Source: a virus
Length of the DNA: 64,000 nucleotides
IMG/VR virus record: IMGVR_UViG_3300025030_000041
Span: 1 to 64,000 of that record
Strand: one strand, 5' to 3'
The notes beneath the pieces are model-generated. The model was given only the letters and a program-made list of their open reading frames with translations, did not search any database and was not told where the DNA came from. This document shows, piece by piece, positions 854 to 39,628 of this stretch. Position numbers and translations under genes: made by a program. Within the stretch, counting starts at the first letter, position 1. The number at the start of each line of letters is the position of its first letter.

Positions 854-2296
854 TTATTTTTTATCTTCATTCTTTTTAGTAAATCGGTCAAGTAAAGCTA
901 AAAGTCCGGCACCTTCTGTTGTTTGTTTTAAGCTTTCAAAAAGTCCATTAGTAGCAGCTCCACCTTTTGAACTAAGAATATCTGAAAATTTACCAAGTCC
1001 TGAATGAACATCTCCGCTATTTACAAGAAGTTTAAGGTCAGCTCCATTTAACGCTGTAGCTAATGACTGGTATTGCACTTTGTTTACTTCTCCTGTAATT
1101 TCAACTTCACGGATTTTAATCAAGTAGTTTTGATAGCTTTCATTTTCACCGATTTCTTTTGCTAGAGTCGTTTGTGCAGTTACATTAGCTAACTCCATTT
1201 GTTTCTTTGCTTCTGCTTCTGATAAACCTTTAGCTTTAATTACTTCAGCTTGAGCCTCTCCAACACTTTTTATAGCTTCTGCTTCTTTCTTTTTTGCCTC
1301 AAGTTGGGCTTTAGCATCAGTTTCAATTTTAAACTTATTCGCCTCTGCCTCAATTTCTGTTTGGCGTTTTTTCTGCTCTGTATTGATGATTGCATTTTCT
1401 TTATCTATCTCAGCTTGGCGAATTTGGTTTACTTTTACTACTTCCATTTTTTGCTCTGCTGTTAGTTTTTCAGCTTTTGCAATTTCAGAAAGTGAGGTTT
1501 GCTCGGCTATTCCTCTATTTTTTACAGATTCAGCTTGTGCAATTCCAATTGCTTGTACTGATTTTGCCTGAGCTTCACCTGAGATTCGTTCAGTTTCAGC
1601 AGCAGTTAAAGCAACTTCTTTTCTTGCTTCTAATTCAGCTTGTTCAGCACTTTTAGTATTCTTAGCGACTTCCGTTCTGCTCTCCATATCAATAGCTGAA
1701 ATGCGTTTAGCCATTATTTGATGAATAACTTCTGAACCTTGTGCATCTCTAACATCCATCAATTCAATACTTTTTATTGGTTCTACTCCCCAACTTTTTA
1801 AATCTTCCTTTACTGCATCTGTAAATAATTGTCCAAACATTGAGCGCTCCTCCATTATTTGTTCTAATTTTGATTTTGCCAAAATAGAACGAACTGCTCC
1901 CTGAACAACATTATTTAGTTGAAGTAAAAGGTCTTGAAAAGATGCAACTTTTTCTGCAGCTTTATTTGTATCTGCTATATGAAAGAACGCTTTTACATCT
2001 ACTTCAAACGGTACTCTGTCTTTGTCATACGCTGAATACTTAGGTAAATCAACCCCAAAGTTTGAAACTGGTAATTCCCTAACTTCTACTCCGTATTTGG
2101 GTAGCCATTTAGGAAATTCGTAATAAACGTTTGATCCTTTACCTACACCATATGAAACCGTTTTAGAACTTCTTTGAACAATATGGACTACGTTTGTAGG
2201 AACAATTCTCCTTAATGAGAATATATAAAAAATGATATAAATACCAAATACTGAAGGTATTCCATAAATTAGGGCTGTTAAAAGGTTTATTTGCAT
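854..2296 (-). CDS. Flotillin / SPFH (band-7) domain protein with an N-terminal transmembrane segment and a long Ala/Glu/Lys-rich coiled coil
   Basis: N-terminal hydrophobic helix, an SPFH-like core (VVHIVQRSSKTVSYG...VPFEVDVKAFFHIAD...) and an extended EA/K-rich repeat region typical of flotillin/YqiK. GC content here is visibly higher than in the neighbouring genes. Confidence 0.7.
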   Translation of the reverse strand: MQINLLTALIYGIPSVFGIYIIFYIFSLRRIVPTNVVHIVQRSSKTVSYGVGKGSNVYYEFPKWLPKYGVEVRELPVSNFGVDLPKYSAYDKDRVPFEVDVKAFFHIADTNKAAEKVASFQDLLLQLNNVVQGAVRSILAKSKLEQIMEERSMFGQLFTDAVKEDLKSWGVEPIKSIELMDVRDAQGSEVIHQIMAKRISAIDMESRTEVAKNTKSAEQAELEARKEVALTAAETERISGEAQAKSVQAIGIAQAESVKNRGIAEQTSLSEIAKAEKLTAEQKMEVVKVNQIRQAEIDKENAIINTEQKKRQTEIEAEANKFKIETDAKAQLEAKKKEAEAIKSVGEAQAEVIKAKGLSEAEAKKQMELANVTAQTTLAKEIGENESYQNYLIKIREVEITGEVNKVQYQSLATALNGADLKLLVNSGDVHSGLGKFSDILSSKGGAATNGLFESLKQTTEGAGLLALLDRFTKKNEDKK

Positions 2297-9268: not shown

Positions 9269-10141
9269 CTAAATTTTATTTTTTATTTTAAAATGATTTA
9301 GCATTAAACAAATATCTTTATAGTGTAATTCACATATTTCATTAATATTATCCCTATATCCACCAAATAGAGATACTGATAAAGGAATAGATTTATTTAA
9401 TTCTTTTTCTAAATTATAAAGCCAATCACAAAATATTTCAGTACATTTAAACCAATTATACTCTGTTAGTTTGCCAGCATGCATATTATCAGTGATTATA
9501 GAGTCTGCGCCATGACAATATACAATATAATGTATTTTATCAGTCTTTATTAACTTTGATAATATATCTAATTTATCTTTAAAATTTTGTATATATTTAG
9601 AGTTTTTACCTGTTGGATTTATATTAGCTAGTTTTGGTATATATGTATTTAAAATTGGAAACATTTTTCTGCTATCTTCAATGGAATTGCCATAGTGAGC
9701 ATCTAAATCTATATATGACCCTGATAATTTATAGTTTTTATATATTAAAGTTGACGCAATAACTTGCCCACTAAATACGCAGAAACCCATTCCTTGGTCA
9801 GGCATAGCATGGTGAAATCCGGCACTCGGAGATACCCCTATTATTTCTGGAGTAGTAATACTTGATTCTATTGAACTATATAAACTGCTACACTGGTATT
9901 CAACTGATTCACTAAACGTATTAGACTGATTAAGTATATTATTTGCATAATCTTTTGTATGAGCTAATAGATATGAGTCTTTTTGTAGTTTATTAAATGC
10001 ATTTAGTTTAAATCTTGAGTCTTTGCTTAAATAGTTATCATATAGAGGCTTACATTTAAACATGCTTTTACTTTCAGAATCAAAATTTAAGTAAGCCATT
10101 TTAGGATGATAAAATAAATTAATCACAGAGGATTTACTCAT
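9269..10141 (-). CDS. Deacetylase of the histone-deacetylase / acetoin-utilisation / acetylpolyamine-amidohydrolase superfamily
   Basis: SAGFHHA (His-His dyad), GFCVFS (GFCY-like) and DLDAHYG (Zn-binding D-x-D-x-H) motifs in the canonical order and spacing. Confidence 0.5.
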   Translation of the reverse strand: MSKSSVINLFYHPKMAYLNFDSESKSMFKCKPLYDNYLSKDSRFKLNAFNKLQKDSYLLAHTKDYANNILNQSNTFSESVEYQCSSLYSSIESSITTPEIIGVSPSAGFHHAMPDQGMGFCVFSGQVIASTLIYKNYKLSGSYIDLDAHYGNSIEDSRKMFPILNTYIPKLANINPTGKNSKYIQNFKDKLDILSKLIKTDKIHYIVYCHGADSIITDNMHAGKLTEYNWFKCTEIFCDWLYNLEKELNKSIPLSVSLFGGYRDNINEICELHYKDICLMLNHFKIKNKI

Positions 10142-14494: not shown

Positions 14495-15391
14495 ATGGCA
14501 AAAATAACAAATTTATCTGATTTAATTATAAAAAAGTTTGAGAATAGTACTGATGTTAAATTAGTAAACACGTTTGCTGATATTAGTGATTATATATCAA
14601 CGGGTAATTACTTATTAAATGCTCAACTTAGTGGAAGTTTATTAGGTGGAATACCTAATAATAGAATTACGACTTTAGCCGGTGATAGCGGGACAGGTAA
14701 AACATATTTAGCTCTTAATATTTGTAGGGAAGCCCAGAGAAATGGATATTTTATAGTATATGTAGATACTGAAGCTGCAGTATCAAAAGATATTATGATG
14801 GATTTTGGTATAGATACTGACACATCTAAATTATTATATGCTGGAATATCAAATATTGAAGACTTCGGATTACTTGGTAATAATATTATACAAATATCGA
14901 AAGACCAAAGAGCTAAGGGAGAGACTCCTAAGATATTAATTATATTAGATTCCCAAGGTATGCTAAATTCAAAAAAAGAAATAGATGATTTAAATAAAGG
15001 AAAGAATGCATCTGATATGGGAACTAGAGCTAAAGAATTAAGAAAATTATACAGAAATATAACTTATGAATTTAGTAATAACGGAATTACCTTTATTCCA
15101 TTAAACCACACTTACTGTTTAACGAGTGGGCATAATATTCAAATGGGAGATAATTCTTTAAAAGATATTAAAGATATACAAATTGGTGAATATGTAAAAA
15201 CGTTAGAAGGTAATAAAGAAGTAATAAATACATTTAATTTTGAAAATTTAGAGTTAATAGAATTAACTTTGTCAGATAATACAGTTGTTAAATGTACAAA
15301 AGACCATAAATTTTTAGTATCTAGTAATAATGAATTAATTTGGAAAAATGCAGATGAATTAAATGAAAATGATGAAATTTTAAGTATATAG
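14495..15391 (+). CDS. uvsX: UvsX recombinase N-terminal extein (aa 1-207) fused to the N-terminal half of a split intein (IntN, aa 208-298)
   Basis: Collinear with T4 UvsX (LSGSLLGGIP..., Walker A GDSGTGKT, ...LDSQGMLNSKKE..., ...IPLNHTY). At Cys208 the sequence switches to a Hint N-terminal domain (CLTSGHNIQMGD..., block B TKDHKF). The ORF ends with tandem stops TAG TAA. Confidence 0.85.
   Translation: MAKITNLSDLIIKKFENSTDVKLVNTFADISDYISTGNYLLNAQLSGSLLGGIPNNRITTLAGDSGTGKTYLALNICREAQRNGYFIVYVDTEAAVSKDIMMDFGIDTDTSKLLYAGISNIEDFGLLGNNIIQISKDQRAKGETPKILIILDSQGMLNSKKEIDDLNKGKNASDMGTRAKELRKLYRNITYEFSNNGITFIPLNHTYCLTSGHNIQMGDNSLKDIKDIQIGEYVKTLEGNKEVINTFNFENLELIELTLSDNTVVKCTKDHKFLVSSNNELIWKNADELNENDEILSI
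15116..15388 (+). mobile_element. UvsX intein 1, N-terminal half (IntN, about 91 aa; standard split position)
   Basis: Starts at the Cys immediately after extein HTY. Contains block A (CLTSGHN) and block B (TKDHKF), then ends at tandem stop codons. Confidence 0.75.
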
Positions 15392-15417
15392 TAAATTATC
15401 TTAACTAATTAAAAAAA

Positions 15418-15543
15418 ATGAAAGACATGAATACAAAAAAAATTATTAAAAAACGTATAATTGAAAAACAAGAAAAAGTTTTTGATATTGAAGTAAAAGA
15501 TAGTCACCATTATTTTTTAGAAAACGGAGTGATTAGCCATAAT
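15418..15543 (+). mobile_element. UvsX intein 1, C-terminal half (IntC, 42 aa)
   Basis: Own ATG 26 nt after the IntN stop, in a different frame. Classic IntC architecture resembling the DnaE and gp41-1 split-intein C-halves. Confidence 0.75.
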
Positions 15544-16524
15544 TCAGGTGGAATGTATGAAGCAACTAAGCAAGGCGGCGGGTGTTTAATACCAGGGACT
15601 AAGATATATACATTCAATAATGTATTAAAATCAATAGAAGGTGTTGAGTCTGGTGATTATGTTAAAACCTTATGTGGATATAAAGAAGTTTTAGAAACAT
15701 ATACATTTGAAAAATCTACTATAAAAATAGAATTTGAAGACACCACAAATATAATATGTTCAGAAGACCATCGTTTTTTAATTTCAGGAGACTATACAAT
15801 TGAAAGTAATTGGAAAAAAGCTAAAGACTTAGCTAATAATGAAAATATTTTAAAAATTGAAAATAATAATATTTTCAATTTAAAAATTAAAAATATTAAT
15901 CATTTATATACACAAAAAGTTCATGATATTAGTGTTAAAGATGTACATCATTATATATCTGAAACTGGTATAATAAATCATAATTCAGGAAATACCTATT
16001 CTGCATCAACTATTTTATTTTTATCTAAGTCATCTCTTAAAGAGGACGGCCAAACTAAAACGGGAATTGTAGTAAGATCTAAAACACAAAAAAATCGATT
16101 AGCTAAACCAATTGATATAGAATTCCATATTAGTCATATTAGCGGAATGAATCCGTATGTTGGATTACAAGATTATATTAGTTGGGAAAATTGTGGAGTA
16201 GTTAGAGGTACTCTACTTACTAAAAAAGAATTTGAAAAAGATAAGTCAAATAACCAAAAAACATATCATGAATTCGAACACAATAATGAAAAGTATTATG
16301 TAATTCCGTCTGATAAAGCTAGAAATATAGTTATAAGAGACGGATGTAAAGAAGTTCCATTTAAAAAACTATTTACATCAGAAGTATTTACAGAAAATGT
16401 TATTAAAGAATTAGATGAAAAAGTAATACGACCTAAATTTAAATATGATAAAATTAAAGACTTATTATCTAATGAATTAACTGAAGTTTTTGGTGATACT
16501 ACAGACGATGAATCAGACGAATAA
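15418..16524 (+). CDS. uvsX: C-terminal half of split intein 1 (IntC, aa 1-42), then the UvsX C-terminal extein, which is interrupted by a second contiguous mini-intein (aa 56-189)
   Basis: IntC MKDMNTKKIIKKRIIEKQEKVFDIEVKDSHHYFLENGVISHN|S has blocks F/G and a terminal HN followed by +1 Ser. Extein SGGMYEATKQGGG and ...SGNTYSASTILFLSK...GIVVRSKTQKNR...IDIEFHISHISGMNPYVGLQDY are collinear with T4 UvsX. Intein 2 is CLIPGTKIY...SEDHRF...VHDISVKDVHHYISETGIINHN|S. Confidence 0.85.
   Translation: MKDMNTKKIIKKRIIEKQEKVFDIEVKDSHHYFLENGVISHNSGGMYEATKQGGGCLIPGTKIYTFNNVLKSIEGVESGDYVKTLCGYKEVLETYTFEKSTIKIEFEDTTNIICSEDHRFLISGDYTIESNWKKAKDLANNENILKIENNNIFNLKIKNINHLYTQKVHDISVKDVHHYISETGIINHNSGNTYSASTILFLSKSSLKEDGQTKTGIVVRSKTQKNRLAKPIDIEFHISHISGMNPYVGLQDYISWENCGVVRGTLLTKKEFEKDKSNNQKTYHEFEHNNEKYYVIPSDKARNIVIRDGCKEVPFKKLFTSEVFTENVIKELDEKVIRPKFKYDKIKDLLSNELTEVFGDTTDDESDE
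15583..15984 (+). mobile_element. UvsX intein 2: contiguous mini-intein (about 134 aa) with no endonuclease domain
   Basis: Cys1, block B SEDHRF, C-terminal block G IINHN, +1 Ser. The flanking sequence restores the UvsX alignment. Confidence 0.8.
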
Positions 16525-17527: not shown

Positions 17528-18235
17528 ATGTTAGAGTTTAGTCAAAATATAAATTACCTCGAAAAAGTATTCTTCTTTTATATATGTCAAAGTAAAGACT
17601 TAATTAGTATATGTAATCCTACTTTTTTTGATAATGAGAAAATAGGAATTACTTTTAAAATAGTTAAATCATTTACTGAAAAATATGAGAAGCCCCCATC
17701 TTCAAATCAAGTTAAACAAATTATAAAATTAAAGGGGTTTGAAATAACTGACCAAGATATTGATTTATTATATAGTGTAAATTTAGATGAATATGACCCG
17801 TCATGGTTAGAAGAATATACTAATACATTTTTATTACTTCGTAATTTAAATGTAAATATGATAGATCTTCTTACATATTTAAAAACTACTACAATAACTC
17901 CAAGTAATATTCAAGAAGTAGTTGATTATGTAAGGAATTTCGTAAGCAAAAAAATTAATTCTAATGTAGTTATTGGTAAAGAAGATGGACTAGACTTTTC
18001 TAAAGTAGAAGACCATTACCAACTTACAAAAACTAATAAATTTTCTACTGGATATACTTACTTCGACAAAGTCCTCGGAGGAGGTTGGGAGAAGAAAACT
18101 TTTAACGTTACAATGGCGCGTCCAAAATTAGGTAAGTGTTTTTTAGGAAATACTATGATTAAAATAAGAAATAAAAAAACTAATATAATTCAAGAAATAT
18201 CAATAGAAGATTTTTATAAATTAATAAAAAAATAA
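17528..18235 (+). CDS. 41: gp41 DnaB-like replicative helicase, N-terminal extein (aa 1-203, ending in the P-loop ARPKLGK), fused to a short IntN (32 aa) of an atypically split intein
   Basis: ...YFDKVLGGGWEKKTFNVTMARPKLGK aligns with T4 gp41 ...LNKITKGGAETGTLNVLMAGVNVGK. It is then followed by CFLGNTMIKIRNKKTNIIQEISIEDFYKLIKK (Hint block A only) and a stop. Confidence 0.8.
   Translation: MLEFSQNINYLEKVFFFYICQSKDLISICNPTFFDNEKIGITFKIVKSFTEKYEKPPSSNQVKQIIKLKGFEITDQDIDLLYSVNLDEYDPSWLEEYTNTFLLLRNLNVNMIDLLTYLKTTTITPSNIQEVVDYVRNFVSKKINSNVVIGKEDGLDFSKVEDHYQLTKTNKFSTGYTYFDKVLGGGWEKKTFNVTMARPKLGKCFLGNTMIKIRNKKTNIIQEISIEDFYKLIKK
18137..18232 (+). mobile_element. gp41 split intein, N-terminal fragment (IntN, 32 aa; atypical split site before block B)
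   Basis: Cys immediately after the Walker A GK, at the canonical DnaB/gp41 P-loop intein insertion point. Block A is present, block B is absent. Confidence 0.7.
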
Positions 18236-18300
18236 ATTAAATCGTTTTCCAAGTTTTCCTCTTCCAATTTTTATATAAATAATAAAAAATAAAAAAAGTT

Positions 18301-19470
18301 ATGAAACTTATAAAGATTGTAGACGATGTGCCAAGAATTAGTAAATTTGGTGTATATGACGAATATGAGTGTCAGTTGTGTGGAAAAAAATGTAAAAAGA
18401 AAAATAGTTTATCTAAGCATTTGTCTACTATTCATGGTTTAAACAATAATGATAAACGTAAAGACTATTATGATAAATACTTAAAAGTTGATGGAGAGGG
18501 AATATGTGTAATATCAGGCAAACCTACTAAATTTATTAATTTTAGTGGTTATAACAAATATATAAATACTCCAGAGGTTAATAAAATAAAATTAAATACT
18601 AAAGGGATAACTTATTTAATGAAAGTTAAAAAACTTTCATACGACGACGCATTAATAGAAAGACAAAATATTGTAAAAAGAAATTCCGAAGGGGTTAAAA
18701 AAGCATTTAGTGAAAAAATAAAGAAAGATCCACTTTGCTGGAATAAGTCTAGCATATATTGTAAAGAATACTGGATTAATAAAGGATATTCTAAAGAAGA
18801 CTCTATTCAATTAGCCAATGATAAGATAACTAAAAATAGAGAAAAACTACAAAAAATTTTAAAAGACGATCCGTCTTATATGAAAAATAAATTAAATACA
18901 TCTTTAGACTATTGGTTAAAAAAGACAAATGGAAATGAAGAAGAAGCTAAAAAATTATTATCTGAACGCCAAACTACTTTTAATTTAGAAAAATGTATAG
19001 AAAAATATGGCGAAGACGACGGAAGAAAAAGATGGGTAGAAAGACAAGAAAAATGGTGTAAAAACTATAAAAAAAGTAATTATTCTAAAATTAGTCAAGA
19101 ATTATTTTGGAGTATTTATGATAAATTAGAGGTTTCTTATAAAAATAATAAATCTATATATTTCGCGGAATTATTAAATAATCGTAAAGACGAAAGCGAA
19201 AAAAATAATGAATACCGATTAAAATTAAAAAATAGGGTTATTATTCCAGATTTTTTCATTTTAGAAAATAAAAAAATAATAGAATTTGATGGAGTGTATT
19301 GGCATAATGAACATAAAATAAAGTATCCAAATCAAAACCGAGATAATGAAAAGTCTAACGACTTAATTAATGAGGGTTATTCTATTTTAAGGATTGTTGA
19401 GGACTTGTATTATAAAAATAAAGAAGAAATAGTTAAACAATGTTTAGAATTTATATATAAGGATTTATGA
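18301..19470 (+). mobile_element. Free-standing homing endonuclease gene between the split-intein halves: N-terminal C2H2 zinc finger plus C-terminal Vsr-like / DUF559 (PD-(D/E)xK) nuclease domain
   Basis: YECQLCGKKCKKKNSLSKHLSTIH = C-x2-C-x12-H-x4-H zinc finger. C-terminal IIPDFFILENKKIIEFDGVYWHNEHK resembles the Vsr/DUF559 catalytic core. The position between intein halves matches the 'fractured gene' arrangement reported from marine metagenomes. Confidence 0.6.
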
Positions 19471-19829
19471 GTAAAAATAATAGTGCTATACGTAAATTTA
19501 TAGATTCAATTAATATTGATGAGTACGATGTATTAACTGATACTGGGTGGGAAGATATTAAATCTATTAATAAGACTATAAAATATAGAGCATTTAGAGT
19601 AGAAACTAAATCTTTTTATTTAGAAGGGGCCGACGATCATATTATTTTTGATAAAGATTATAATGAAATATATTTAAAAGAATTAAGTATTGGCGATAGT
19701 GTATTAACTGAAAATGGAATTGAAATAGTTTTAAATATAAAAGATTTAGAATATTCAGATAATATGTATGACTTAGAAATTAATTCTGAAAATCACAGGT
19801 ATTATACGAATGGTATTTTAAGTCATAAT
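19467..19829 (+). mobile_element. gp41 split intein, C-terminal fragment (IntC, 121 aa)
   Basis: Starts with an ATG that overlaps the HEG stop (ATGA) and ends ...ILSHN immediately before the extein. Confidence 0.7.
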
Positions 19830-20690
19830 AGTACAATTCTTTCAAATTTTGCTGCAAATTCAATACGTAATGGAAAAAATGCAGCCGTTATTACACTAGA
19901 GTTATCTGATAGGAAATATATGAGGCGAGTGGGGGCTAATCTTTTAAATATTACAACTGGCGAATATAAAGATTTTGATGAAACTAGAAAAGATTTAATT
20001 AAACATAAACTTGATAATTTTTATGGAATGTTAGGGTGGCCTGCTGGTAATTTATGGATTAAAGAATTTCCGACTGGAACTGCGTCATTTATTGATATTG
20101 AAAATTCTTTGCTTAGGCGTGAAGATAAAACTGGAATTAAATATGACTTAGTAATAGTTGACTATCTTAATTTGATGAAAAGCGATGGCAATTCTAATCA
20201 AAATATGTATGAAAGAATAAAACGAATATCAGAAGGATTAAGAGCAATAAGCCAAAGAAATGAATGGTGTGTAGTATCAGCAACACAAGTTAGAAAAGAG
20301 TATTTTGATAAAGACGTTTTAGGGATGGATGCTGCAGCAGAAAGTAGTGGATTAATTGCAACAGTCGACTCTTTATTTGCTGCCTCTAGGGATTCTCTTA
20401 GTGATATTGCAAGAATAGAATTAATAGCAAACAGAGATGAAGGATATACCGGTAGTTCTTGTAATTTTAAGATGCAATTTAAAAATGCAAAGATGATTGA
20501 GACAAATGAGTTTCAGTATTATGGCGATGAAGACGGCACTAACTTAGAAAAAGAGATGCTAGAATCTTATAAGAAAAATGAAATTATAAGTGCTATTGCA
20601 GGACAATCAATAGGAACTAATATTGAAATACCTGAAGTTAATAAAAATAATAAAGAAACAGATTACGAATCAATTTTAAATTCTATTTAG
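19467..20690 (+). CDS. 41: Long IntC (aa 1-121) of the atypically split intein, fused to the gp41 helicase C-terminal extein
   Basis: IntC carries block B (GADDHIIF) and blocks F/G (MYDLEINSENHRYYTNGILSHN) followed by +1 Ser. The extein STILSNFAANSIRNGKNAAVITLELSDRKYMRRVGANLL... aligns with T4 gp41 SLGLCSLAADYLQLGHNVLYISMEMAEEVCAKRIDANML... Confidence 0.8.
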   Translation: MSKNNSAIRKFIDSINIDEYDVLTDTGWEDIKSINKTIKYRAFRVETKSFYLEGADDHIIFDKDYNEIYLKELSIGDSVLTENGIEIVLNIKDLEYSDNMYDLEINSENHRYYTNGILSHNSTILSNFAANSIRNGKNAAVITLELSDRKYMRRVGANLLNITTGEYKDFDETRKDLIKHKLDNFYGMLGWPAGNLWIKEFPTGTASFIDIENSLLRREDKTGIKYDLVIVDYLNLMKSDGNSNQNMYERIKRISEGLRAISQRNEWCVVSATQVRKEYFDKDVLGMDAAAESSGLIATVDSLFAASRDSLSDIARIELIANRDEGYTGSSCNFKMQFKNAKMIETNEFQYYGDEDGTNLEKEMLESYKKNEIISAIAGQSIGTNIEIPEVNKNNKETDYESILNSI

Positions 20691-31109: not shown

Positions 31110-32177
31110 TTATTTATTAAATCGATTAAAGTATTGATATGATATTAAATTGTATTTTGCTTTACCAACAAAATCTTTTAAGGTTTTAGCATTACAATAG
31201 CTCATTGCTGATTTTAAATAATCAACAAAGTTATTAGTCCATCCTTCTACTGTATATTCTACTTTATTATATTTTACTATGCCTTCACTTGTAGTTAATT
31301 TAAGTTTACCCCAAGATTGTTGAACCTCTTTAGTAGACATTCCTCTATATTTTTTATATAGAGGAATTTTATTTTTAAATAAAAAATGTTTAATATCTGG
31401 AAATTTATCAATTTTTATTTTTTTAAATAATAAAGTATCTCCGCATGATTCTATTGATTTATTAAAAATAGAACCTACCATAACGTAGTCGGCTCCTAGA
31501 CATATTACTTTTATAATATCACTGAAATTTTTCATGCCGCCATCTGCCACAATTTTAGCAGGTGAGCTTAACGTACAACTTATATCATAGCATTCTTTTA
31601 TTAAAGATCCCATTGGATAACCAATTGAAACGTTAGAGGACGTCGTGCATGCCCCACCGGACCCGATTCCGCACCGTATATAATCAGCACCAGCTTCGCT
31701 TAATATTCTATAAGTTTCAGGATTAGCGATATTTCCAACCATTAGCATAATAGAATTTCCATACATGTCTTTTGCTAATTTAACAATTTCTAATAACTTG
31801 GACATATGCCCATTTGCCATATCTATTAAAATATATTTATGGTCTATCGTTATTTTATTACGAATATATAAAGTAGTAAACTCATCTAATGAATATGACT
31901 TAAAAATTGGCATAGTAGTCATTAGCTTTGATATATCTATATTGCATCCTCTTGGAATACAAACTGGAATTTTATTCTTAATAAATATATCAATATTATT
32001 TTTATCTATTACAGTATCCATTGGAGCAGCTATAATAGGTAAATAATTTTGACATATTAAATTTAAGTGATTATAATATGGATTAACTTGCTTTCTTGAA
32101 TTTATTTTAGAAATGGCATCTGGCATTATTAAAATGTCATTTAAATCAAATTTTATTTTGTCTATATTAAAATCCAT
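31110..32177 (-). CDS. IMP dehydrogenase / GMP reductase family protein; the size and the absence of a CBS pair favour a GMP reductase-like enzyme
   Basis: PIIAAPMDTV, GADYVMVG and the active-site loop GIGSGGACTT (catalytic Cys) of the IMPDH/GuaC TIM-barrel family. The gene is contiguous, with no intein. Confidence 0.7.
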   Translation of the reverse strand: MDFNIDKIKFDLNDILIMPDAISKINSRKQVNPYYNHLNLICQNYLPIIAAPMDTVIDKNNIDIFIKNKIPVCIPRGCNIDISKLMTTMPIFKSYSLDEFTTLYIRNKITIDHKYILIDMANGHMSKLLEIVKLAKDMYGNSIMLMVGNIANPETYRILSEAGADYIRCGIGSGGACTTSSNVSIGYPMGSLIKECYDISCTLSSPAKIVADGGMKNFSDIIKVICLGADYVMVGSIFNKSIESCGDTLLFKKIKIDKFPDIKHFLFKNKIPLYKKYRGMSTKEVQQSWGKLKLTTSEGIVKYNKVEYTVEGWTNNFVDYLKSAMSYCNAKTLKDFVGKAKYNLISYQYFNRFNK

Positions 32178-38191: not shown

Positions 38192-39628
38192 TTATTTATC
38201 TAATTCATTTAGCCTATCAGACAATGCCTTACGCAAAGCTTTATTTTCGAGTCTTTCATTATAAAAATAATTTAATATTTTTCGTGAGACTGAATCAATA
38301 TCCATCCTAAAATATGTATCAAATGCCGTTTTACATATTTTTCTATCTATTAGCTCCTCAATAGATAAATTAAGGCCTTTCCCTAAATATGTATCAGGTG
38401 ATATATTATTGCTACAAATTATGTTCGGATATAGACTAGAAAAGTCCTGACATACTACAGTTTTATAATATCCAGGAATCGGTTCCTTAACGAATGCGCC
38501 TTCATATTTTGGGCCACCTTCATTTTTTTGATACTTTGAGTTATATATTAGTTGTTTTTCTTCTTCTGTTTTTTCAGGTACTTTTAAATTTTGTTCTATG
38601 TATTTTCTAAATATTAGAATTTCACTTATAAATACTGGGCTATTATATTTATTAATATCACATATACTTAAGTTTACCATTTCAAATACAACATCAAGAA
38701 GAAATTTAGAGTCTTCTATTTCTTTTACTAAAATAGAGTCGATAGCATTGTATATTGCAAATTTGCGATAATTTGTTTTATACATTTCTAGTATATTTTC
38801 ATTATCATTTTTAAATTTTTTAACTCCAAGTACTTCTTTTGAAATATAGTCTAATGTATAATTCTCTACAATTTTTAATGGCGACCTGCTTCTAAATAGT
38901 TCAAGGTAGTCTATAACAGCAGTATGAGCTGGAACTAAATATTTTGTTACTCTTTTATTTGTTGCTATATTTTTTGTTGGATTTATTTTTAAATTTTCAC
39001 AGCGTTTCATTAGATATTGCCAGTCAAAATTTAAGAAATTCCATCCAGTTAATAGCGGTATTTTTGGTAGAAATTTATGAAAGAAATACTCTAACATTTC
39101 TATTTCAGTTTTGAACCAAAGATATTTTAAAGTATAGGTTTTTAAATTTGGATTACTTTTTTTAAGATATGTATTCATTTCATTTTCCATATCTTGTTCT
39201 TGACTTCTCAAGTCTTCTCGACACGACAATATATATGCAATATTAGATTCGTTTACTACTGATATTAGAAGAACTTGGTATTTTGCTTCTGATGGTTCTG
39301 GGAATTCATTATTTTCTCCAGTTTCAGTCTCAATATCACAATAATATTTTTTAGGAGTATTAAATTCTGACATTTTATTTTTTTCATCTAGTGTGAGATT
39401 ATTATATAAGAATTCTTCTTGTCTAAAACGTCCTAAATACTCTGTAGGTTTTTTTCTTACATTTTTATTATCCCAACTTTTTAATCCAGTATTTTCTTCA
39501 CAATATTCGTAGTTATATAAATCAGAACTTGGTATATTTTTAATAATAAAGTCTATTTCTTTATTTTTATTAATGTATGATATATACATTTTACTTTTAT
39601 ACTTATTAAATTCAACTCCTACTACCAT
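38192..39628 (-). CDS. 43: Family B DNA polymerase N-terminal portion: N-terminal domain plus 3'-5' exonuclease plus polymerase motif A. It terminates before motifs B and C, so it resembles a split 43A-type gene
   Basis: Exo I YYCDIETE, Exo II NFLNFDWQYL, Exo III YNAIDSILV and pol motif A VCQDFSSLYPNII. The ORF then stops about 75 aa later, with no KxxxNSxYG or YGDTDS motif. Confidence 0.8.
   Translation of the reverse strand: MVVGVEFNKYKSKMYISYINKNKEIDFIIKNIPSSDLYNYEYCEENTGLKSWDNKNVRKKPTEYLGRFRQEEFLYNNLTLDEKNKMSEFNTPKKYYCDIETETGENNEFPEPSEAKYQVLLISVVNESNIAYILSCREDLRSQEQDMENEMNTYLKKSNPNLKTYTLKYLWFKTEIEMLEYFFHKFLPKIPLLTGWNFLNFDWQYLMKRCENLKINPTKNIATNKRVTKYLVPAHTAVIDYLELFRSRSPLKIVENYTLDYISKEVLGVKKFKNDNENILEMYKTNYRKFAIYNAIDSILVKEIEDSKFLLDVVFEMVNLSICDINKYNSPVFISEILIFRKYIEQNLKVPEKTEEEKQLIYNSKYQKNEGGPKYEGAFVKEPIPGYYKTVVCQDFSSLYPNIICSNNISPDTYLGKGLNLSIEELIDRKICKTAFDTYFRMDIDSVSRKILNYFYNERLENKALRKALSDRLNELDK

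Follow-up and report, generated by a model that had tools for sequence, protein, structure and literature searches.

The stretch analyzed here, 64,000 nucleotides (nt) comprising positions 1 to 64,000 of IMG/VR virus record IMGVR_UViG_3300025030_000041 (the window), contains a gene for the recombinase UvsX that is divided between two neighboring open reading frames (ORFs) and appears to be interrupted by two inteins. ORF1 (14495..15391, plus strand) encodes 298 amino acids (aa) and ORF2 (15418..16524, plus strand) encodes 368 aa. ORF2 starts 26 nt past the ORF1 TAG and lies in a different frame (14495 mod 3 = 2 for ORF1; 15418 mod 3 = 1 for ORF2). ORF1 contains the N-terminal part of UvsX followed by the N-terminal half (IntN) of a split intein, intein a. 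ORF2 opens with the C-terminal half (IntC), which is followed by a short piece of UvsX, a contiguous mini-intein (intein b) and the remainder of UvsX (Table 1). An earlier reading of this DNA, made from the letters alone (the sequence-only reading), had proposed this arrangement, and each of its elements was found where it had been placed. The two inteins are 13 residues apart, as the body of that reading said, rather than the 12 given in its title. Its 42-aa IntC holds if translation begins at ATG 15418; the other candidate start, ATG 15427, which public gene callers use, would shorten IntC to 39 aa.

Table 1. Features of the uvsX locus and of the divided helicase gene downstream. A slash marks a splice junction, here and in the text.
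Feature	Position	Strand	Basis or remark
UvsX N-extein, residues 1-207 (Walker A GDSGTGKT, Walker B ILIILDS), ending ...FIPLNHTY	14495..15115	+	Pfam RecA, PHROG UvsX
Intein a, IntN, 91 aa: Cys1 = C208, block B CTKDH, acidic tail NADELNENDEILSI	15116..15388	+	aligns with ~20 UvsX IntN sequences
Tandem stop codons TAG TAA ending ORF1	TAG 15389-91, TAA 15392-94	+	sequence
A/T-rich spacer between the ORFs (26 nt counted from TAG)	15395..15417	+	probable scar of a lost endonuclease cassette, and ORF2 translation-initiation region
Intein a, IntC, 42 aa (39 aa from ATG 15427): basic head KKIIKKRIIEK, block F VFDIEVKDSHHYF, block G VISHN	15418..15543	+	intein hidden Markov model
13-aa mini-extein SGGMYEATKQGGG between inteins a and b	15544..15582	+	first Ser = +1 nucleophile of intein a
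Intein b, contiguous mini-intein, 134 aa: C56 ... CSEDHRF ... VHDISVKDVHHYI ... IINHN/S, no endonuclease domain	15583..15984	+	Pfam Intein_splicing
UvsX C-extein, 179 aa, beginning with the +1 Ser of intein b (SGNTYSASTILFLSK...), plus stop codon	15985..16524	+	PHROG recombinase, 7.1e-27
Helicase N-part, ending in Walker A ...ARPKLGK/C, plus 32-aa intein N-half (18137-18232)	17528..18235	+	sequence
Endonuclease gene, 389 aa, C2H2 zinc-finger plus DUF559/Vsr-like	18301..19470	+	between the helicase halves
Helicase intein C-half, 121 aa (19467-19829, ...NHRYYTNGILSHN/S), plus rest of helicase	19467..20690	+	sequence

UvsX and its two inteins

ORF1 matched Pfam RecA (E 5.9e-14) and PHROG UvsX (1.9e-45). 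Joining the 207, 13 and 179 extein residues in silico gave a 399-aa, 44.7-kDa UvsX that aligned in one piece with uninterrupted UvsX proteins of huge phages (LR7565xx records, Lak phages) at 34-40% identity. Among proteins in the PDB, the joined sequence matched a phage UvsX (9gbg, E 1.5e-44) and T4 UvsX (3io5, 6e-25), and the alignments to both of these and to Escherichia coli RecA crossed the two splice junctions uninterrupted. Relatives, designated below by P and L numbers, were gathered from environmental metagenome and viral contigs by searches with ORF1, ORF2 and an IntN profile. A search of a phage collection at the DNA level had found no near relative, only stretches of 70-115 nt with 73-79% identity in huge phages; the comparison was therefore made via proteins. 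The nearest UvsX relatives (P0002-P0004) are intein-free proteins of 402-405 aa that are 70% identical to the joined protein. The N-extein likewise shows 70% identity to these proteins, and the C-extein is 73% identical to that of P0002. The junction region of P0002 reads NHTY-AGGMYEGAKMGGG-DGALYSS. Compared with P0002-P0004, the window sequence differs at the junctions only by A to S and D to S changes, and these two Ser residues are the +1 nucleophiles.

The joined protein has the features of the RecA family, namely the ATPase core, Walker A and B, the NH allosteric-switch motif, the L2 loop and the GGG...Y.AS motif. Intein a is inserted two residues past the allosteric-switch His, which we take from the T4 UvsX literature to be the equivalent of RecA Gln194, and intein b is inserted after the GGG that closes the L2 loop. 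By alignment, the 13-residue mini-extein is the RecA/UvsX L2 DNA-binding loop, and the two inteins bracket it.

IntN reads C208 LTSGHNIQ...DEILSI before the TAG, and ORF2 begins MKDMNTKK...VFDIEVKDSHHYFLENGVISHN/S. The sequence-only reading had proposed a search with intein-block hidden Markov models (HMMs). In such a search Pfam Intein_splicing matched ORF2 above its curated cut-off (E 8.2e-11), and an intein HMM built in this analysis recognized the IntC domain with an E value of 8.4e-11. About 20 diverged UvsX N-fragments (42-51% identical) terminate at the same position behind the same IntN. When the fused halves were aligned with 12 contiguous UvsX mini-inteins, the match extended over their full length, and the invariant residues in this 13-intein alignment include C1, the block-B His, the block-F Asp (D114) and the terminal H132-N133. 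The break lies in a variable linker between blocks B and F, which is the canonical split position (91 + 42 aa). As the sequence-only reading had stated, endonucleases usually sit at this point, and relatives of the window intein hold endonuclease genes there. The IntC closest to that of the window belongs to L144 (...VYDVTVEDAHHYFLENGVISHN/T).

Solved inteins were compared with the fused halves by sequence and by predicted fold. The gp41-1 split intein was closest by sequence (E 5.6e-10), and Npu DnaE was also matched (E 1.6e-7); matches to Tako8 and WD-repeat proteins in the same search were repeat artefacts and were disregarded. AlphaFold2 run on the 13-intein alignment returned a HINT-domain prediction for the fused halves with a predicted local distance difference test score (pLDDT) of 94.9 and a predicted template-modeling score of 0.85, the only dip (pLDDT 85) being at the fusion point. 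The best Foldseek matches for this model were inteins and closely related HINT domains. They included the bacterial intein-like domain 2lwy, the Mtu RecA mini-intein (template-modeling score 0.85) and gp41-1 (0.82/0.85, root-mean-square deviation 2.1), with the DnaB, Npu DnaE and NrdJ-1 inteins next in order. The fused halves are thus predicted to fold as a HINT domain. The exact junctions relative to intein-free homologs, the conserved catalytic residues and this predicted fold bear out the claim of a split intein with adjacent halves and no endonuclease gene inside UvsX, and they support the assignment of intein a as a canonically split class-1 intein with Cys1 and Ser+1.

The contiguous mini-intein that the sequence-only reading had placed downstream in UvsX is likewise present. 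Intein b opens with CLIPG and is recognized by Pfam Intein_splicing (the ORF2 match given above) and by our intein HMM (E 2.7e-53). On the basis of its catalytic residues (C56, CSEDH and IINHN/S) we assign it as a probable class-1 intein of 134 aa. It is 49-52% identical to inteins at the same site in other phages, and intein a is 45-49% identical to its own same-site counterparts; the window's two inteins are 44% identical to each other. Because each is slightly nearer to same-site inteins of other phages than to its neighbor, these identities indicate that inteins a and b are related members of one UvsX intein family and not a recent tandem duplication.

In the mechanism that we propose, the ORF1 product would be UvsX(1-207)-IntN, and the ORF2 product would consist of IntC, the 13-aa L2-loop extein, intein b and UvsX(221-399). 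The acidic IntN and basic IntC would associate to form one HINT domain and carry out class-1 protein trans-splicing by means of Cys1 (ORF1 C208), the block-B His, ORF2 Asn42 and the +1 residue ORF2 Ser43. Intein b would excise itself in cis using ORF2 C56, N189 and the +1 residue S190. The product would be the 399-aa, 44.7-kDa UvsX with a ligated junction on each side of the L2 loop, and its junction peptides would be NITYEFSNNGITFIPLNHTYSGGMYEATK and QGGGSGNTYSASTILFLSK. From the sequence comparisons and the structural model we infer that combined trans- and cis-splicing very probably yields this protein. The net charges of the halves show a modest trend in the expected direction, being −9 for IntN and +5 for the first 22 residues of IntC, compared with −4 and 0 for the corresponding parts of intein b.

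Several observations count against splicing, or temper the support for it. ORF1 scores just below the curated cut-off of Pfam Intein_splicing (E 4.2e-8; 33.6 bits against 35.8), charge complementarity is modest in that IntC as a whole carries only +2, and the ratios of nonsynonymous to synonymous substitution rates (dN/dS) of 0.05-0.44 for IntN and IntC of the relatives are rough and can be read only qualitatively since dS is saturated. One could also suppose that the break inactivated the recombinase and that the halves of a decaying pseudogene no longer splice, given that elements of this kind also lose their homing endonuclease gene (HEG) in the course of their decay cycle. We regard this as highly improbable, since the ORFs are intact over 298 and 368 codons, all catalytic residues of both inteins and the RecA motifs are kept, the fused halves give a confident HINT model, and the homologous halves in relatives are under purifying selection. 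Moreover, UvsX is a core gene, and no second RecA-like gene was found among the ~20 large ORFs of the window that were scanned for families. Another conceivable explanation is that the gene truly encodes one contiguous mini-intein and that the break arose in sequencing or assembly. A homopolymer of eight A residues (A8, 15411-15418) directly before the ORF2 ATG and the extreme A+T richness of its surroundings would fit such an error. However, all three frames are closed in the spacer (by the TAG/TAA and by TAA at 15402-04, 15406-08 and 15410-12), so that no single insertion or deletion would repair the gene, and in the ~20 diverged homologs the ORF ends at this position too. Compared with the window, no mismatches were seen in the assemblies of the groundwater runs SRR1658462 and SRR1658465 (both PRJNA268031) over 8897 and 6239 nt, respectively, or in assembly ERZ27254728 over 1465 nt; an identical ORF1 protein is recorded on 10 contigs. 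A check of read support for the 26-nt spacer and frame change, which the sequence-only reading had suggested, is answered indirectly by the identical DNA of these three independent assemblies. An error of this kind is therefore next to inconceivable, and the split arrangement is not an assembly artefact.

Translational bypass of the break was ruled out as well. Stop-codon recoding is known in some huge phages. In the window, long ORFs end in TAA (33), TGA (10) and TAG (7), and since all three codons terminate long ORFs the standard code applies. Readthrough of ORF1 is incompatible with this stop usage, with the TAA that directly follows the TAG and with the frame of ORF2. With every frame closed upstream of the A8 run, neither a single frameshift nor programmed slippage there could join the ORFs.

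Conceivably, the two interruptions have been retained because they act post-translationally, delaying recombination during infection or serving as a conditional switch for it, and are not purely selfish DNA. Because the inteins bracket the L2 loop exactly, UvsX could not bind DNA before two independent splicings had finished. If so, one of the two required splicings would be bimolecular and hence concentration-dependent. Conditional splicing has reportedly been observed for archaeal RadA inteins, to which this case would be analogous. We consider such a regulatory role improbable.

Insertion sites and endonuclease genes in related uvsX loci

Comparison with metagenomic UvsX inteins, as the sequence-only reading had proposed, revealed insertions at four points of UvsX in varied states. 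Site a, after NHTY, is empty in P0002-4 and P0166 and holds a contiguous mini-intein in P0009, P0021, P0124 and L084. Of the relatives, at least 20 have UvsX broken at this point, mostly with a free-standing HEG between the halves. It is split with a free-standing ORF between the halves in L005, L006, L011, L088, L143, L144, L145 and the P0022 contig, split with a 210-333-nt spacer in L012, L013 and L089, and split with a 17-87-nt spacer in the window, L004, L014 and L142. Site b, after GGG, may be empty, occupied by a contiguous intein (window, P0122-P0128, P0187) or split with an intervening ORF (P0025, P0026, L015, L016, and additionally L010 and L091). A third point, a′ (NHTYxxxG/C), lies four residues into the L2 loop and is split with an intervening ORF in L009/L086 (NHTYKQVG/C) and L095 (NHTYDVVG/C). 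The fourth is in the P-loop (GxSG/TGKT) and gives a very short N-half; UvsX is encoded by three genes in L006, L008 (2770-7197) and L089 (2770-6473). These three loci are split at site a as well, and their P-loop break (GESG/C...) leaves an N-half of ~27 aa and a long C-half with an intervening ORF of 380-437 aa. Two C-fragments, P0128 and P0198, also belong to the P-loop type; block F/G in these (VYDFEVLHDNHRYW...SSHN/TGKT) resembles that of the VidaL intein.

Two inteins 13 residues apart had been described as an unusual density, which proved to be an overstatement. Both of these sites are filled in six or more further protein clusters or loci (P0009, P0122, P0123, P0125, P0132, L009), and by this comparison double occupancy is a feature of the clade and not a singularity.

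The intervening ORFs are of several homing-endonuclease types: DUF7487 proteins whose end is TnsA-like or endonuclease-I-like (E down to 1.8e-38), HNH plus NUMOD3, HNH, and an ORF with a weak match to SegE-like GIY-YIG proteins. At the a′ loci the endonuclease gene lies on the other strand and encodes a 274-aa SegE-like GIY-YIG protein in L009 and a 208-aa HNH protein in L095. DUF7487 genes are the commonest between the halves (L005 5427-6485, L011 5462-6685, L088 5449-6675, L143 3954-5078, L144 3960-4964, L145 3736-4659). Pfam annotates DUF7487 as of unknown function; at the C-terminus it has weak matches to TnsA-like nucleases and to phage endonuclease I. The location of these genes between UvsX halves argues that DUF7487 is a homing endonuclease family.

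Remnants of endonuclease genes were found in the spacers of several relatives. The L089 spacer corresponds to the first 290 nt (77% identical) and last 52 nt (83%) of the L006 endonuclease gene, the L013 spacer retains the 5′ 154 nt and 3′ 82 nt of the L011/L088 gene, the L012 spacer retains the 3′ 154 nt of an endonuclease gene, and the 38-nt L014 spacer matches the two cassette flanks only. In one lineage the states before and after insertion are both present. The linker of the contiguous L139 intein is TGT AAA TTA AAT TTA AAC GGT ATG (C-K-L-N-L-N-G-M). In L005, of the same lineage, the whole cassette is inserted behind TGT AAA. In L142, 72 nt remain of the cassette leader; behind them come the former linker codons K-L-N-L-N-D, which share the reading frame of the IntC Met. 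L004 has a 5-nt scar plus a TTA to TAA change. The linker codons of the contiguous allele (K-LNLNG-M) persist on both sides of the cassette scar in the L139/L005/L142/L004 lineage. The L139 and L142 alleles (P0124 and P0019) are 88% identical over the first 897 nt; L139 is contiguous, and L142 is split and retains an 87-nt remnant of the cassette. In a second such pair, L141 (P0021) is contiguous, and the contig of its close relative P0022 has a split intein with a 346-aa DUF7487 gene lying between the two halves. Within each pair the alleles differ in intein state only. Because the DNA states of L139, L005, L142 and L004 line up, we conclude that a cassette entered the mini-intein linker in this lineage and was later lost.

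We propose that intein a of the window arose by a similar route. A free-standing HEG would have inserted into the linker of a contiguous mini-intein, creating a fractured gene, and deletion of the endonuclease gene would then have left the 26-nt scar. The nearest relatives of intein a, L144 and L145 (~50% identical), have the same insertion point and carry a DUF7487 gene. L143, which has a split intein a, the short extein and a contiguous intein b as in the window, carries a DUF7487 gene as well. This proposal has its weaknesses: the window's 26-nt spacer has no recognizable remnant and no similarity to the cassette flanks of L143, L144 or L145, and the window lineage lacks a close relative in another state, its best intein match being ~50%, so that endonuclease loss is extrapolated from other lineages. 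The principal competing origin is a primary split, in which a nonsense mutation and a small linker insertion or deletion cut in two a contiguous mini-intein that never held an HEG, with a pre-existing linker Met serving as the IntC start. The linkers of L139 and L004 differ only by T to A (TTA to TAA) and a 5-nt insertion or deletion, contiguous L139 already contains the Met that starts IntC, and the absence of a detectable endonuclease remnant from the window spacer would likewise be expected. Against such an origin, L142 of the very lineage that includes L139 and L004 keeps the 72-nt cassette leader at the exact spot, and L005 keeps the whole gene. The nearest relatives of the window intein all carry an endonuclease gene, and the stop position and IntC ORF start are common to lineages that are ~45% identical and mostly HEG-bearing. 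A primary split thus seems a rather unlikely origin. We infer that intein a of the window probably lost an endonuclease gene formerly situated between its halves. Of the two origins considered in the sequence-only reading, endonuclease deletion is therefore favored by the HEG-bearing nearest relatives and the decay intermediates, and a primary split less so.

Source phage and downstream helicase

The source is a huge, T4-like, very A+T-rich groundwater phage, the window being part of a contig of at least 265 kb. The G+C content of the window is ~25% (range 22-33%), and its genes include those for a T4-like portal protein, DNA ligase, Rad50/Mre11-like proteins, thymidylate synthase, PhoH and an SNF2 helicase. 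The promoter and terminator scan found nothing exceeding shuffled expectation and no terminator between ORF1 and ORF2. The ORF2 leader is A-rich without a Shine-Dalgarno sequence, like the leaders of other window genes; all of the ~50 long ORFs (at least 150 aa) that were checked have A/T-rich leaders without a Shine-Dalgarno sequence. No tRNA genes were found in the 64 kb. The sign of the GC skew switches with gene-strand blocks near 14 kb, 30 kb and 46 kb.

The DnaB/gp41-like helicase gene 1 kb downstream of uvsX is likewise fractured (17528-20690, plus strand). Its intein is split 32 + 121 aa, an atypical split of the VidaL type, and its best solved match is VidaL (6vgv, E 9.2e-8). For the fused helicase intein, AlphaFold run on the single sequence gave no informative model (pLDDT 35). 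Scanning the window with the intein HMM recovered only the two UvsX ORFs and a weak match, which is the helicase IntC. The phage thus carries an atypically split VidaL-type intein with its HEG in place beside a canonically split intein whose own HEG has probably been lost. Since naturally atypically split inteins are few, the helicase locus may merit attention.

The family-B DNA polymerase ORF (38192-39628, minus strand) encodes only 478 aa, comprising the exonuclease domain and approximately the first 140 positions of the polymerase domain in Pfam. It matches a PHROG of ~500-aa polymerase N-halves. The next ORF downstream encodes a Metallophos protein, which suggests that the polymerase C-half is encoded elsewhere or missing; the intein HMM scan of the window gave no intein motif at the polymerase break. 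Unusual cargo for a phage includes a histone-deacetylase-like protein (9269-10141, minus strand; Pfam E 5.2e-15), an SPFH/Band 7 protein (854-2296, minus strand; 3.2e-18) and an IMPDH/GMP-reductase-like protein (31110-32177, minus strand; 3.1e-38).

Significance and comparison with known systems

The uvsX locus leaves the understanding of how inteins work unchanged. It is of value chiefly for the comparative series and as a source of new split-intein parts; its novelty is modest, the arrangement being of a known kind. The gp41-1 intein belongs to the fastest known class of split inteins. The window contributes a small natural intein (91 + 39-42 aa) of the canonically split Cys1/Ser+1 kind, which is related to gp41-1 and has dozens of diverged orthologs, and such inteins are raw material for orthogonal protein-ligation tools. 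Within the UvsX family, sometimes in near-identical alleles, all proposed stages of the split-intein life cycle are displayed: the contiguous mini-intein, cassette insertion into the linker, the fractured gene, internal decay of the HEG and a short scar between adjacent halves. The L2 loop of the phage recombinase is a dense landing zone, with at least three insertion points within 14 residues and one more in the P-loop.

Fractured genes with split inteins were described for gp41-1 to gp41-9, NrdJ-1, IMPDH-1 and NrdA-2 by Dassa et al. (2009, PMC2677866), who mention UvsX only as a neighboring ORF. The series from contiguous mini-intein through HEG insertion to HEG loss consists of steps that those authors proposed, and because DNA-level footprints support the series their model becomes directly testable. 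Like their loci, uvsX is a phage DNA-metabolism gene in co-oriented neighboring ORFs with a mini-intein split into ~90 and 40 aa; both halves of the gene lie at one locus on the same strand, each with a split-intein half. In contrast to the usual fractured gene, there is no HEG between the halves and no ORF in the gap. This was also the case for gp41-7, whose split-intein halves have no endonuclease gene between them (PMC2677866), so that the newness in kind of an HEG-less split locus had been overstated. The uvsX locus is probably, judging from its relatives, a fractured gene that has lost its endonuclease, like gp41-7. It differs from the loci of Dassa et al. in the host protein, in the second, contiguous intein 13 residues on and in its source, a huge groundwater phage rather than a marine cyanophage. 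Although gp41-1 is the closest solved intein by sequence and among the closest by fold, it is only ~26% identical to intein a.

The cyanobacterial DnaE split inteins (Ssp, Npu) share with intein a the canonical split site and the predicted class-1 chemistry, and their halves are oppositely charged, a trend that is modest in intein a. Their halves are far apart in the genome, and the locus has no endonuclease history, whereas the window halves are 26 nt apart and relatives keep the HEG.

VidaL inteins have reportedly been described in a T4-like helicase and in UvsX. VidaL itself (PDB 6vgv) is, like intein a, a naturally split intein from an environmental T4-like phage. It has an N-half of 16 aa (PMC13014065), whereas the break in intein a is at the canonical place (91 + 42 aa), which lies between blocks B and F, and the intein is located at the L2 loop, not the P-loop. 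With an IntN of 91 aa, intein a falls outside the atypically split class (VidaL/AceL-TerL), in which the N-half is ~15-30 aa. No description of a UvsX intein was found in full-text literature searches, whose coverage did not extend to the VidaL papers of Burton (2020) and Bachmann (2017).

Finally, the L2 loop region is a known insertion site of the Mycobacterium leprae RecA intein and of a phage recA intron (Taylor et al. 2011, PMC3239194). The mycobacterial RecA inteins (M. tuberculosis, M. leprae) and the I-Bth0305I intron in recA of 0305phi8-36 are, like inteins a and b, mobile elements in a RecA-family recombinase. Each of those elements is single and contiguous, either a large LAGLIDADG intein or a group I intron, whereas the UvsX of the window has two inteins, one of which is split.

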